Assembly (NCBI GenBank): GCA_964016885.1
Contig: OZ024743.1
Coordinates: forward strand, 169,322,001-169,386,000
Direction of reading: 5' to 3'
DNA length: 64,000 nucleotides
Source of the DNA: Eledone cirrhosa
Lineage: Eukaryota
Part shown: positions 1-63,569 of the stretch, piece after piece
How positions within the stretch are numbered: the first letter of the stretch is position 1
Layout: every line of letters begins with the position of its first letter
Made by a program: the position numbers and the translations under genes
Notes under the pieces: generated by a model
Told to the model about the DNA's origin: nothing
What the model saw: the letters and a program-made list of their open reading frames with translations, nothing else
The model's database searches: none

Positions 1-360
1 CTGACTATGAAATCGCCAGATCCTCAGATACGTCTCGATCATTCGAAGCAGAGTTTCCAAATGTCCAGATAATCACGCGGCCTTCGCTCATCAGCTTCTT
101 TAACTGGACATTTGGAAACTCTGCTTCGAATGATCGAGACGTATCTGAGGATCTTGCGATTTCAGAGTCAGCTTCCATCATCGCATCGATCGTACCTCGA
201 GCTGGTCGCCAGAGAAACGATTGTAATATGTCTAATAAATTTTAATTCGTCGCACCACTCATTCTCCGTTTCTTATGTGATATTATACTCTGCTCTGTAA
301 GAGCATCGAGTGCTCAAACGGCCTACCGCATACAGACGCTTTAAGCATCCTACACCAATT
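1..360 (+). mobile_element. PLE 3' end with inverted partial copy (fold-back; left arm cut by window edge)
   Basis: 1-68 is the reverse complement of 104-171. HHR at 137-233, ACTC..GAGTGCTC motif at 287-315, then (TA)n. Confidence 0.7.
137..233 (+). ncRNA. Type I hammerhead ribozyme, long stem II
   Basis: Stem I AGACGTAT/ATATGTCT, core CTGAGGA, about 62-nt stem II (TCTTGCGA..TCGCCAGA), GAAA-CGATTG-TA. Confidence 0.75.
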
Positions 361-390
361 ATATGTATATATATTTATATACATATATAT

Positions 391-1507
391 ACTAGCTAGA
401 AAAATGCGTACAGCAAAAAAAAGTAATATTGTTGGAACAAACCTTTAAAAATACAGGACAAGGAAGTAAGATAAACCTTTAAAAATACAGGACAAAGAAC
501 TAAGATAAAACTTTAAAAGAATAGGACAAGGAATATAAATTTTTACAATAATATTAGTGGCAAAATTCAATTGGTAAAAAATTGAGTTTCCATCATTACA
601 CCAATTACAACTATGATGTTCCGCATGCATCCACTCCAACCATGATCACTTGTCTGTCATCTTTCCCGGTCCAACTCCTCGCGGATGACCCGGCGCAACT
701 CGGACTGGGTCGGAGCAGGAACTGGAGGGGGAGAGGGAGGGGTACGGGTCTTGACTCTGGGACGATGACGGCGAGTGACCAAGGTGAATGGGCCCGTGTT
801 CGACTCGGAATCCTGCTGGTCCTCGATGACACTTTGAGGCACGGTTGACGGTTCCGGACTGGCTTCATGGGCAGTGGTAGAAGGGCAGGTGGATAGGGCA
901 GAGTGCTTCTTCCCTGGAGAGCACTTGAAGCAGGTGAAGCCGGCGCCGGACTCGTTGAACCACTTCCAGACAGCACTGGGCATGTTGGCGCAGCAATGAT
1001 GAAAGTTGAAGCAGGCGACGAGGGGGGAGGAGGTGGAGGCGTTGGTGCAGGAGCAACAGACTGCTGATTTGGGAGTCATTGTAGCTGGGGGATGCAGGCG
1101 CTGAGGGGGCTCGAGTAGAAGGGAAGAACAGAAATGAACCATGATGACTTTTCCTACATTTTTCCTGGCCCACTTCCTCATGAACCAATGAACCAGTTGG
1201 TACAACTCGGACTTGGAGGAGGAACACAAGACAGGGATCAATTTCATTGTATTGATATTTCTCATTAAGTAATTTCATGTTACTCAAATAAATCACTTTT
1301 ATTTGATCAATTATCTATTTTTCCAATAAAATTTTTGCCACTAATATTATTGTAAAAATTTATATTCCTTGTCCTATTCTTTTAAAGTTTTATCTTAGTT
1401 CTTTGTCCTGTATTTTTAAAGGTTTATCTTACTTCCTTGTCCTGTATTTTTAAAGGTTTGTTCCAACAATATTACTTTTTTTTGCTGTACGCATTTTTCT
1501 AGCTAGT
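391..1507. mobile_element. Non-autonomous element with about 175-bp terminal inverted repeats containing internal subrepeats (foldback/MITE-like)
   Basis: 391-565 is the reverse complement of 1333-1507. The TIR holds about 3 copies of a ~35-bp AAACCTTTAAAAATACAGGACAA unit. Ends are ACTAGCTAG/CTAGCTAGT. TSD ambiguous. Confidence 0.75.
615..1079 (-). pseudogene. PHD-finger ORF1-like fragment of a CR1/L2-type LINE inside the TIR element
   Basis: CCSC..VAC..FHHCCANM..W..G.FTCFKC (degenerate PHD), Pro-rich linker, then IREELDRER/RQVIMVGV across a frameshift, like LINE ORF1 coiled-coil/RRM entry. GC-rich island. Confidence 0.55.
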
Positions 1508-1974
1508 TTCCTATTTTTCAAGGCAATGCAAACAACAACTACTTAATTAAATAGTTATTACTTTAGTTACTTCTATCAAAAAATCCCAAAAATGATGTTA
1601 ATGAAAACTATAGGTGAAAGTGAAGCTATTCTTTTGTGACCTCTTAGTTACTTGTACCAATTTTGAATTTAATTCAAGCTACAGTGTCAGCCTGTGCATT
1701 GGAGTCACAGAAATAAGTTGAGATATTTTATCTAATTGGTACAAGCATCCACTCCACATGGCGGGGACATAGGTCAGATCGTGGAGCACTCACCTATCTT
1801 AAAAATATTAACTTATGATAAATAAGAGTCATTTAAGAAAATACAATTTTTTTAAATTAGTAGGTGAGCATTAACAACTGAATCTAAATGGAGCAAATTT
1901 GCACCATTTGCATTTAGTTGAAAATAACATTTTAATTAAACATGACAAATTCTAATGCAATAGAAGGCAAATAT

Positions 1975-2240
1975 CAATTTTCACATGCAAATTTTTTTGG
2001 GATTTTTTTCACGCGCGCCATTTTTGGTCGATTTTTTGTCAATTTTTCACATGCAAATTTTTTTGGGTTTTTTTTATCTTTTTTCACGCGCGCCATTTTT
2101 GTCGATTTTTTGTCAATTTTTCACATGATAATTTTTTTTTGGATTTTTGGATTTTCTTCACGCACGCCATTTTTGTCGATTTTTTGTCAATTTTTCACAT
2201 GATAATTTTTTTTGGATTTTTGTATTTTCTTCACGCGCTT
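1975..2240. repeat. Tandem repeat, about 74-bp unit, about 3.5 copies
   Basis: CAATTTTTCACATG recurs at about 1976, 2040, 2114, 2188. Confidence 0.85.
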
Positions 2241-61030: not shown

Positions 61031-61306
61031 CAGGTATGGGCAATCTTTTTCGTGAAGCGGATCATATGAGATATGGATCATCATCAGGCGGGATAATTTG
61101 CAATCGTGGCCACATTAAAAACAAAAAGGGTGATAACTCAGGTTGTTGTGATTTGTTTCTTCAGAATTCGTACACGTTATTTTCCTCGATCGTAAAAATG
61201 ATCGAAAGATAAATTAGGACTGAAAACTTGGGGTAAAAAAGTCAGAAAGATTTCACTTAGGCGAGCCATTCAGAAAGCTTCGTGGGCCGCAGGTTGCCCA
61301 TGACTG
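61031..61306. mobile_element. hAT (Charlie-like) MITE
   Basis: TIR CAGGTATGGGCAA/TTGCCCATGACTG; 8-bp TSD CTCTATAC/CTTTATAC. Confidence 0.85.
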
Positions 61307-62880
61307 CTTTATACCTTCTCTATTCTCTCGACCATATATGGCAAACATCAAAACCTTCACCCATCACCAATGATCAAAGGATAATTGTTCCACATCACAG
61401 CACACAGATTGATAATGTGAAACTCTTTACTCCCATTCCCTCTCTACTATCACACTAATTTACTGTATTTTATTCTATTTTTATTGTCATTTTGATTTAT
61501 TTGTATTTTCTGAAGCGAAAATGCCATTTTTAACTGAACTTCGCATTCCTGAATTCTAGTTACTTCCACAAATAATTATAAGCTTTTTGAAGGAGTGTGA
61601 TAAATAATTAAGTATTGCATATGATTGAACAATATTCATTGTAGTCAGCATATGTAGACAATTAAAATAGATACAGAAACATGTTAAAGAAAATATATTC
61701 CTAATTTCCTTTCTCGCCGATGTTTAAATTTTTCTTGGTGTAATATTTGCTTACAACGAAATGACAAGACAACGAACGGAAATAAAACAAAGCGAAAAAC
61801 GATTTTTTTAAGGGAAACCTTAAAAATTATTTAAAAAAAATAAAAATACAACCCAAAGACATAGAACTTCATGGTCATCGACCGATGAGATGGACTTGTT
61901 CAGTTTCGGCCCCTACCAATGGTACTACGGGTCCATCTGGAGTCACAGCATCTGGCACAAGCCAAACACTGTCCAGTGGAGCAAGAGACGAGAGACAATA
62001 CATTAATTTATAGCCATTAAGCTAGAAAACAAAGAATTTTGTGTGGAATTAGGTAAAATGCCGTCATATTAATAGATAAACTTAAGAAAATTAATAAAGA
62101 ATGGACAAAACAACGAACAGAAATATATATATAGTATATATGATACATATATAACGGCGGCGAAGATTCGAAACCGAATGTGAGCTTTCCCGCCTCTGGG
62201 ACAAGCCGTGGTAACTTGTTTTCGCTCAAGAGACTAACACCTTGGGAGAGGCTAAACACAGGTCAGAGGTGTTTACGCCTGACAGAAAATAGGTCAGATG
62301 TTATATCCATCTTTCTGACTTGTTTACGCTTGGCAAACTAATCCCTTGGGGACTAACCAAAGTTCAGAGGATATATCTATCCTTCTAACTTCAACTCTTA
62401 TAAATACAGGGGTTGTTTACGCCTCGACAGAAAAGAAGTTATATACAGACAAGACAAGTCGCATTTACAAGCTCTCGTCACGAAAAACCAGTCTGCCACT
62501 TATTCTCACCTTCCTGGCTGATCGCTGACTCCTGCAATTCAAATAATTAAATATACTGATACGCACACACGCATTCATAGTGAGTTCAGGCACCATTTCT
62601 GTTTACACATATTGTACCTTTCTGATACAGTACAAATTATATTATAATCGTATTCTGTGATACTTGAATTTACGTGGCTCGAAGAGCCACCAAATTATTG
62701 TATGAATATTTTGTGTTATTGATTTTATCATTCAATATTCAAATTGAATATTGTTATAATAAAATAAACTTTGTAACAACACAAACCTGGTATTTTTCTT
62801 TACATCGAAACCACCATACCAACAGTTACATCCATCCATCCACTTATCGTTACAACCACACATAATATTCCGTTACCCAT

Positions 62881-63130
62881 ACTAGAAAAAGAGCCCATCG
62901 TTGAAGGGCACACCTTTTGCTAGTGTAAATAAAGAGCCCCTCTCTTCTCAGCCTGACCGTCTTTAAATAGCTCAGAACTCTGCTATTTTAGGGGAGAGAA
63001 AGATTTAAACTGTATGTTGACATGCCTCAAGAGCTAAATAACCAATGTATCAAATTTGAACAAAATTGGATAGAAACTGTGTAAAAGTATCGCCTGCATG
63101 CATACAGATAGACATTTTCGTTTGTATATA
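62881..63130 (-). mobile_element. Non-autonomous Helitron-like element
   Basis: ACTAG end with subterminal hairpin GCCC..GGGC; CATAC/AGAT microsatellite near the other end. Confidence 0.55.
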
Positions 63131-63142
63131 TATATATATATA

Positions 63143-63569
63143 TAATTAAAAGTTTAACAAGGTTCAATGAATTCATCAATGAATAAAGTTTCACAATAGA
63201 TTAGAAGCACTCTAGAGTGAGGTTTTCTGGAGTTATTAATATTACTTCAAAATATTAATAAATATAGACATTCATGTGATCAAATATATTTTATTATACA
63301 TATTTCAGAGATACTAAGCTATTTCAACAGTACGTCCTCATCAGATAAACTAAGCTGATGCCTGACATACCTTGACTATGTTGATGGTTATAATTTAGTC
63401 ATGGCAGTCATGACTAAATTATAACTATCAACATAGTCAAGGTATGTCAAGCATCAACTTATTTTATCTGATGAGGACGTACTGTTTAAATAGCTCAGTA
63501 TCTCTGAAATATGTATAACATATATTTGATCACATGAATGTCTATATTTATTAATATTTGAAGTAATAT
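63143..63569. mobile_element. PLE fold-back with an HHR in each arm, 5-bp spacer
   Basis: 63239-63403 mirrors 63409-63569. HHRs at 63290-63349(-) and 63462-63520(+): CTGATGA-GGACGTACTG..GAAATATGTATA. Confidence 0.88.

Follow-up and report, generated by a model that had tools for sequence, protein, structure and literature searches.

The 64,000-nt stretch of the Eledone cirrhosa genome analyzed here, referred to as the window (contig OZ024743.1, positions 169,322,001 to 169,386,000, from an assembly of 3.0 Gb), contained a series of Penelope-like elements (PLEs) that were assigned to the Hydra clade by domain order and motifs. They were inserted as fold-backs, i.e., as an inverted pair of copies whose 3′ ends both face outward. 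Such fold-backs probably arise when both ends of a cut target prime complementary DNA (cDNA) from the same source RNA, and the two products are then joined end to end. Whereas the clade and the layout were already known, the data on end pairing, arm nesting and source alleles are added here, and at the level of sequence they favor two-ended priming over the self-priming idea published for PLEs.

Self-comparison of the window recovered all eight inverted structures of the first-pass annotation, with 3′ ends outward and (TA)n outside each. The ends were never symmetric, as one arm carried a tail of ~75–135 nt (end L) while the partner arm lacked it (end S). All eight structures exist, although fold-back A was found to start outside the window and fold-back E to end earlier than annotated. 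The earlier list had also missed the structures at 43244–43656, from 63596 onward and at 20378–22694, and had merged a separate element (37362–37572) into E. The fold-backs were as follows, with unit positions referring to the 3118-nt unit of family B:

Fold-back A, 1..360: arm 1–171, with the core of a hammerhead at 145 (+); short end outside the window, ~56 nt to its left, and tail at the end near 360.
Fold-back B, 11377..12309: arms 11481–12309, 99% identical; zero-loop center at 11895 on a natural TAATTA; left arm spanning unit 3118 (L) to 2599, right arm spanning 2599 to S; hammerhead-like motif without stem I.
Fold-back C, 14826..15197: arms 14914–15197; tail left, short end right; zero-loop center at 15028; hammerhead core kept at 15097 (+) but deleted in the left arm.
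Fold-back D, 23077..32313: arms 23211–27459/28264–32313, 96–99% identical; left arm tailed, right arm short-ended; left arm stops at 27459 and right arm is ~805 nt longer at its 5′ end, so arms not nested; right arm encodes thumb and GIY-YIG (27618–28502); hammerheads at 23417 (−) and 32107 (+).
Fold-back E, 32335..37360: arms 32336–34138/35361–37138, 91–95% identical; left arm short-ended, right arm tailed; left arm extends ~1.2 kb further 5′ than the right and has reverse transcriptase (RT) and endonuclease remnants (33615–35379, −); non-nested arms; hammerhead at 32430 (−).
Fold-back F, 37608..43159: arms 37608–39679/41419–43079, 85–91% identical; inverted left arm short-ended; after 39679, a 50-nt tail remnant and then a full-length decayed Hydra unit ending in a tail; hammerhead at 42991 (+).
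Fold-back G, 38322..38514: nested in a TA run of the left arm of F only; arm 38322–38437, 100% identical; tail right; zero-loop center at 38379; 3′ half of a hammerhead only (read by eye).
Fold-back I, 43244..43656: 75-nt arms, tail left; additional to the first eight.
Fold-back H, 63143..63569: arms 63239–63569, 92.5% identical; left tailed, right short; hammerheads at 63344 (−) and 63468 (+).
Fold-back K, 63596..64000, minus strand: tailed left end; hammerhead at 63782 (−); runs ~2.7 kb past the window end, with RT and endonuclease remnants there; additional to the first eight.

End pairing was followed beyond the window in family B, whose 3′ ends could be placed to the base, with L at unit position 3118 and S at 3011, 107 nt upstream. 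Exact patterns gave 554 matches for S plus TA and 769 for L (the latter including ends inside tandems); earlier end patterns had been dropped as a window-specific variant (5 matches) or as too short (1480, 494 in the control). The matches listed first, on contig C1, formed 133 clusters, from which the first 79 in order were fetched, plus one hand-picked locus. These 79 consecutive loci comprised 48 L/S fold-backs, one with the second end interrupted, 23 solos and 7 unresolved cases. Every fold-back with both ends visible paired L with S (48/48, no S/S and no L/L; p = 4e-15 versus free choice), where the L-type count admits two ends at 3095–3101 and three arms were only 12–18 nt long. The solos, with their 5′ end joined to microsatellite, used the two ends equally (11 L, 12 S), suggesting that either site can prime alone. 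The inverted fraction was 60% after correction for two-end sampling, and 54% if unresolved loci were counted as not inverted, so that inversion is the commonest outcome in this family, as first suggested. Tandems joined from L to unit start were seen at L029, L034, L037, L046, L048, L049, L063, and L107.

The same pairing was found in other families. In family H, 11 clear L/S pairs occurred among the 30 best-scoring loci (window copy counted), with L121, L128, and L136 ambiguous, and in family F all 10 pairs among 29 loci were L/S, two of the ten being paired from coordinates. Other TA-flanked inverted repeats in 753,510 fetched bases were flush/tail in 67 cases, flush/flush in three and borderline in one, a count that includes selected family H loci (one of them twice) and in which each repeat was not assigned to a clade. 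No adjacent inverted pair was found among hits to a short interspersed nuclear element (SINE)-like repeat (88 hits), another repeat (25 hits) and two pieces of long interspersed nuclear elements (6 and 9 hits). Within the sampled DNA, inversion was thus PLE-specific, and the proposed tie between fold-backs and PLEs held.

Both arms could be aligned in 45 family B fold-backs, of which 22 were non-nested, 20 nested and 3 near-symmetric. In the non-nested class the S arm extended further 5′, whereas the tail was present only on the L arm; as each arm holds sequence absent from its partner, a single cDNA folding back is impossible in these 22. Arm lengths were uncorrelated (rho = 0.20, p = 0.18), and the longer arm was S-ended as often as L-ended. 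The duplicated stretch had a median of 281 nt, reached at least 1 kb in 6 of the 45 and was missing in 10. Kilobase palindromes are therefore a minority, the tail of a length distribution, and not the routine product that the first-pass annotation had envisaged.

In the 29 family B fold-backs whose arms overlapped by ≥100 nt, 27 of 1317 informative sites differed between the arms, compared to 355 expected for random partners, and 246 minor alleles were present in both arms against 27 in one. Because the arms share source alleles, two unrelated insertions are excluded. Microhomology of at least 2 nt was found at 21 of 31 clean junctions versus 19% by chance (p = 5e-9), while inserts of 1–58 nt occurred in 14 of the 45 fold-backs, mostly without a clear template, with two matching nearby element sequence over 15–17 nt. 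Of the 21 solo 5′ ends tested (two of 23 left out), 20 had A or T as their first base versus 65% expected, as if they had annealed to the target.

Based on these observations, the element endonuclease would cut both strands of the (TA)n target, and each free target end would prime its own cDNA on RNA of the source copy, with one start at L and one at S. Each cDNA would terminate largely independently of its partner, and their 3′ ends would then be joined to each other across 1–4 nt of microhomology or through short inserts. Gap filling would complete the inverted pair, of which a single arm carries the tail. An ordinary 5′-truncated solo would form if the second end instead annealed to the first cDNA and copied no RNA. 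That the two 3′ ends face outward would imply two primers on a template of the same polarity, and the strictness of L/S pairing suggests one complex, dimeric or otherwise asymmetric; the template may be a single RNA molecule or a pair transcribed from one locus. Twin priming of L1 likewise uses both target ends as primers and yields an inversion through joining at microhomology, but there the second primer anneals at variable positions far upstream, and the two pieces share no overlap. Here, in contrast, the second start has a fixed position ~100 nt away from the first, and the 3′ end is duplicated as a result.

A candidate signal for positioning the two start sites lies between S and L, where a 4-bp stem of the form RCTC...GAGY, a pattern picked after viewing the tails, was present in 15 of 27 distinct tails (0.55 in shuffles), 11 tails being without it. 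The outer pair co-varied (A-U in 9 tails, G-C in 5 and both in 1, with a mismatch in one additional tail), and the stem spanned dissimilar families, e.g., the window tails 14826–14914, 63145–63239, and 43080–43159. Whole-tail folding was no more stable than that of shuffles (z −2.1 to +1.1).

Two of the steps above have a counterpart in vitro. Poseidon of Anolis carolinensis cleaves and extends both target strands, and two internal RT start sites bound the tail (Frangieh et al., 2024; PMC11167929); its complex is a predicted dimer, and its insertion does not depend on ribozyme cleavage, which likewise looks dispensable here. Poseidon belongs to another clade, however, and the main text of that paper does not tie two-strand priming to inversion. 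It reports no strand bias in the start, whereas each insertion here had one start of each kind, and the in vitro work ends before joining of the second end (PMC11167929). The layout itself had been described earlier, including the adjacent inverted 5′-truncated copy, the tail at one end and the bias to (TA)n (PMC8557442, PMC3846280), so that it is not novel as once supposed; the mechanism of tandem and inverted PLE insertions was called unresolved (PMC8557442). Pen2a_Av of Adineta vaga is the closest described case in these two papers, sharing partial tandems and an adjacent inverted 5′-truncated copy (PMC3846280; PMC8557442, Figure 2), as well as a tail at one inverted end and palindromes at some junctions. 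Those accounts give the layout together with self-priming or endonuclease resolution, to which counts of pairing, nesting and alleles are added here. A published two-ended priming model of PLE inversion was not found in a literature search, whose scope did not extend to older Penelope papers under subscription.

The palindromes were confirmed as real, native DNA. Arm identity across the window fold-backs was ~85–100%, i.e., a divergence of up to 15%, and element G and SINE-like repeats were present in single arms only. Opposite-strand joints of family B were found in raw Illumina reads of three other samples; that from unit 2840 to 3029 occurred in all three runs (8, 9, and 3 reads, with 69-nt sides), a second had a single start site and a third appeared in one run only. 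These libraries were reduced-representation, and the junctions of the window lay outside their coverage. The F junction at 39679 was bridged by none of the listed contigs, which would suit a misassembly but is uninformative either way. With diverged arms, one-arm insertions, fixed asymmetric ends and short-read joints in other samples, an assembly artefact was rejected, and the probability of long-read fold-back chimeras or misassembly is negligible. The SINE-like repeat was ~190 nt long (23418–23523, 34444–34630, 36372–36550, 37166–37263, 48096–48280, and 52978–53160), and those of its insertions confined to single fold-back arms are useful for dating the arms separately.

Snap-back, in which one cDNA folds and copies itself into the second arm, had been offered by the first-pass annotation beside priming from both strands, and self-priming was proposed for palindromic PLE junctions (PMC3846280). 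It would account for the zero-loop centers at 11895, 15028, and 38379, for the shared alleles and for an excess of near-symmetric centers, and it is compatible with the 20 nested and 3 symmetric fold-backs. It cannot produce the other 22 of the 45, nor D and E, nor does it explain arms without any overlap (10/45) or the equal frequency of S-ended and L-ended longer arms. As a general route it is excluded by the non-nested class, and overall it is an unlikely explanation; of the two routes first offered, priming from both strands agreed best with the data. The tail has also been attributed to endonuclease-mediated resolution of an intermediate (PMC8557442), such that staggered cuts in DNA, and not two priming sites on RNA, would give the tail and both ends. 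Although both ends lie in an A/T-rich, TA-like context and a single staggered cut would give strict L/S pairing, a double-stranded donor joined to both target ends would be expected to insert directly and not inverted, and a plain hairpin cannot hold non-nested sequence unless one arm were re-cut and re-joined. Moreover, the start sites of Poseidon in vitro match the tail boundaries on RNA (PMC11167929), and we regard resolution by staggered cuts as quite improbable.

Later inverted duplication of ordinary insertions, through template switching in replication or break repair, is suggested by multi-piece junctions with short inserts and by the existence of duplicates (17047–17469, and probably the family H loci L119/L120). 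Such an event would neither place another precise element end on (TA)n nor supply tail or 5′ sequence that the first arm lacks, and neighboring non-PLE repeats lacked such pairs, which makes it very unlikely as the source of the fold-backs. Two independent insertions in opposite orientation into one (TA)n tract, later fused by deletion, are conceivable in that these tracts gather many elements side by side. However, there was no TA between the arms, the arms share source alleles, and not one L/L or S/S pair occurred in 48 consecutive cases despite equal use of both ends by solos, leaving this explanation highly improbable.

Several observations weigh against two-ended priming, or limit what can be drawn from the data that favor it. 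Near-symmetric centers (≤10 nt) were enriched (3/45 versus 0.5 expected, p = 0.01), as snap-back likewise predicts, and they could stem from snap-back as a minor route or from two cDNAs that both ran to one RNA end. The hand-picked locus L107 was L/L (603–5939), with a tandem and an extra 56-nt junction jump. Both tails of the pair L119/L120 were broken at one base by a common foreign sequence, probably as the result of a later inverted duplication, and the flush/flush repeats of the 753,510-base count included one of family B and one of family H. Gene conversion between arms may have contributed to the shared alleles (private variants: 17 present in both arms, 108 in a single arm), and microhomology can be inflated by BLAST end extension, with the two longest overlaps possibly including a mismatch. 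The (TA)n target hides any target-site duplication, and the sample consisted of young copies with exact-match ends on one chromosome. Finally, the in vitro support comes from Poseidon, of a clade other than Hydra, and there the start sites did not differ between strands, coupling being outside the tests made (PMC11167929).

Hammerheads were scanned with a custom descriptor, also in relaxed form. A full type I hammerhead was predicted in six of the eight elements first listed (A, C, D, E, F, and H), mostly with a palindromic stem III as described before (PMC4209133), so that the description of the elements as hammerhead-bearing applied to these six, while G keeps a 3′ half only and family B has no stem I. 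Rfam gave 115 matches on the window, all under the gathering score, and none with E ≤ 0.1 came from a hammerhead family. Family B had the core and stems II and III, but stem I was absent in all relaxed scans. As family B nevertheless folds back as often as other families, a working ribozyme is probably not needed for fold-back, contrary to what the first reading had implied; insertion of Poseidon in vitro was independent of ribozyme cleavage (PMC11167929). A self-complementary target, as first invoked, is not required in general either, because the PLE at 20378–22694 is inverted beside (CA/TG)n.

Assignment to PLEs agreed with the first reading, but the proposed Naiad identity did not survive. 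In every coding remnant the RT lay upstream of the GIY-YIG endonuclease, an order seen in F, E, and D by tblastn. The 3118-nt unit of family B had an unbroken frame of 782 codons in L049 and 781 in L063, and in six more near-full units the longest frames were 486–740 codons. Its motifs included RWK at residue 37, DKT at residue 119, CNCVQPGMC, CRLCNVE, and CNH, and those of fold-back F were RWK (39950), DKT (40167) and CxCx5C (41487), plus CxxC-E and CxH; linker or endonuclease cysteine motifs were also present at 28086, 34010, and 45075. The diagnostic set of Hydra is RWK, DKT (versus DKG), CxCx5C, and CxxC/CxH around conserved E and N (PMC8557442). Pfam gave a weak RVT_1 match on F (E = 0.007) and no endonuclease match, and the endonuclease was assigned from motifs; in the GIY-YIG core of family B, read by eye, the second and third cysteine of CCHH were not seen. 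A homologue search returned 61 matches at 32–40% identity, one of them from Apostichopus japonicus, a listed Hydra host. Hydra-1_Obim of Octopus bimaculoides is in the supplement of Craig et al. (2021; PMC8557442).

Shared with Hydra as published (PMC8557442) were the order of RT and GIY-YIG, the RWK, DKT and CxCx5C motifs, a unit of ~3 kb, hammerheads (predicted in full in six of the eight elements first listed) and (TA)n, which adjoined every terminal L and S end of the sampled fold-backs. The tails were longer here (~60–135 nt versus 30–40 published), some families had microsatellite-rich 3′ untranslated regions (UTRs) of 1.4–3.8 kb, and family B, young and with its frame intact, lacked stem I, while hammerheads are described as universal in Hydra (PMC8557442). 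Naiads share the (TA)n target and tandem or inverted insertions, but their endonuclease is N-terminal, they carry DKA and they lack a canonical hammerhead (PMC8557442), none of which fits the window elements; with a C-terminal endonuclease, DKT and predicted hammerheads in most elements, Naiad was rejected.

The following further features of the window relate to PLEs:

17047..17469, plus strand: later local duplicate of the right arm of B, within a 905-nt copy (11887–12791 to 17047–17939, 98% identical).
20378..22694, minus strand: non-Hydra PLE with RT, then C-terminal GIY-YIG, and an inverted 3′ copy; adjoins (CA/TG)n; putatively Neptune-like by motifs.
37362..37572, plus strand: tailed solo of a family different from E, with its own two ends; fold-backs of its family occur elsewhere.

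The start of the 905-nt duplication coincided exactly with the center of palindrome B. Very long 3′ UTRs at 28511–32313 (3.8 kb) and 41800–43159 (1.4 kb) were filled with TA/CA/TG microsatellite, which belongs to the transposed unit since it is present in both arms. Decayed or solo Hydra-type copies lay at 18122–18401, 44378–47125, and 59804–60760, with no inverted arm visible. In family H (L108–L137), many 5′ stops fell at a narrow spot ~170 nt upstream of S, beside a short palindrome and accompanied by small template jumps; this spot may mark where a short non-autonomous transcript begins, or else a strong stop. At 391–1507, 190-nt inverted repeats (98%) surrounded a cysteine-rich open reading frame (ORF) fragment (657–1274, minus); no tail asymmetry was seen, and the structure may be a terminal-inverted-repeat element of another kind. 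Direct repeats of 605 nt (4241–4834/8451–9055, 98% identical), which lay between TA runs and had a third, partial copy at 3748, flanked decayed retroelement ORF fragments.

Hundreds of young, base-exact insertions and an unbroken ORF provide rules that separate the models of PLE inversion, namely one end of each kind, non-nested arms and a single source, and make the open step of the reaction biochemically testable. In genomes of this kind, many inverted repeats are left by PLEs and could be misread as miniature inverted-repeat transposable elements or microRNA hairpins; Rfam microRNA matches on the window fold-backs were sub-threshold only. It is conceivable, though somewhat doubtful, that coupled twin priming is the normal PLE pathway across clades, with an asymmetric complex positioned by the stem and every insertion starting two cDNAs. 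If so, inverted copies, one-sided tails and solos would be outcomes of one reaction.

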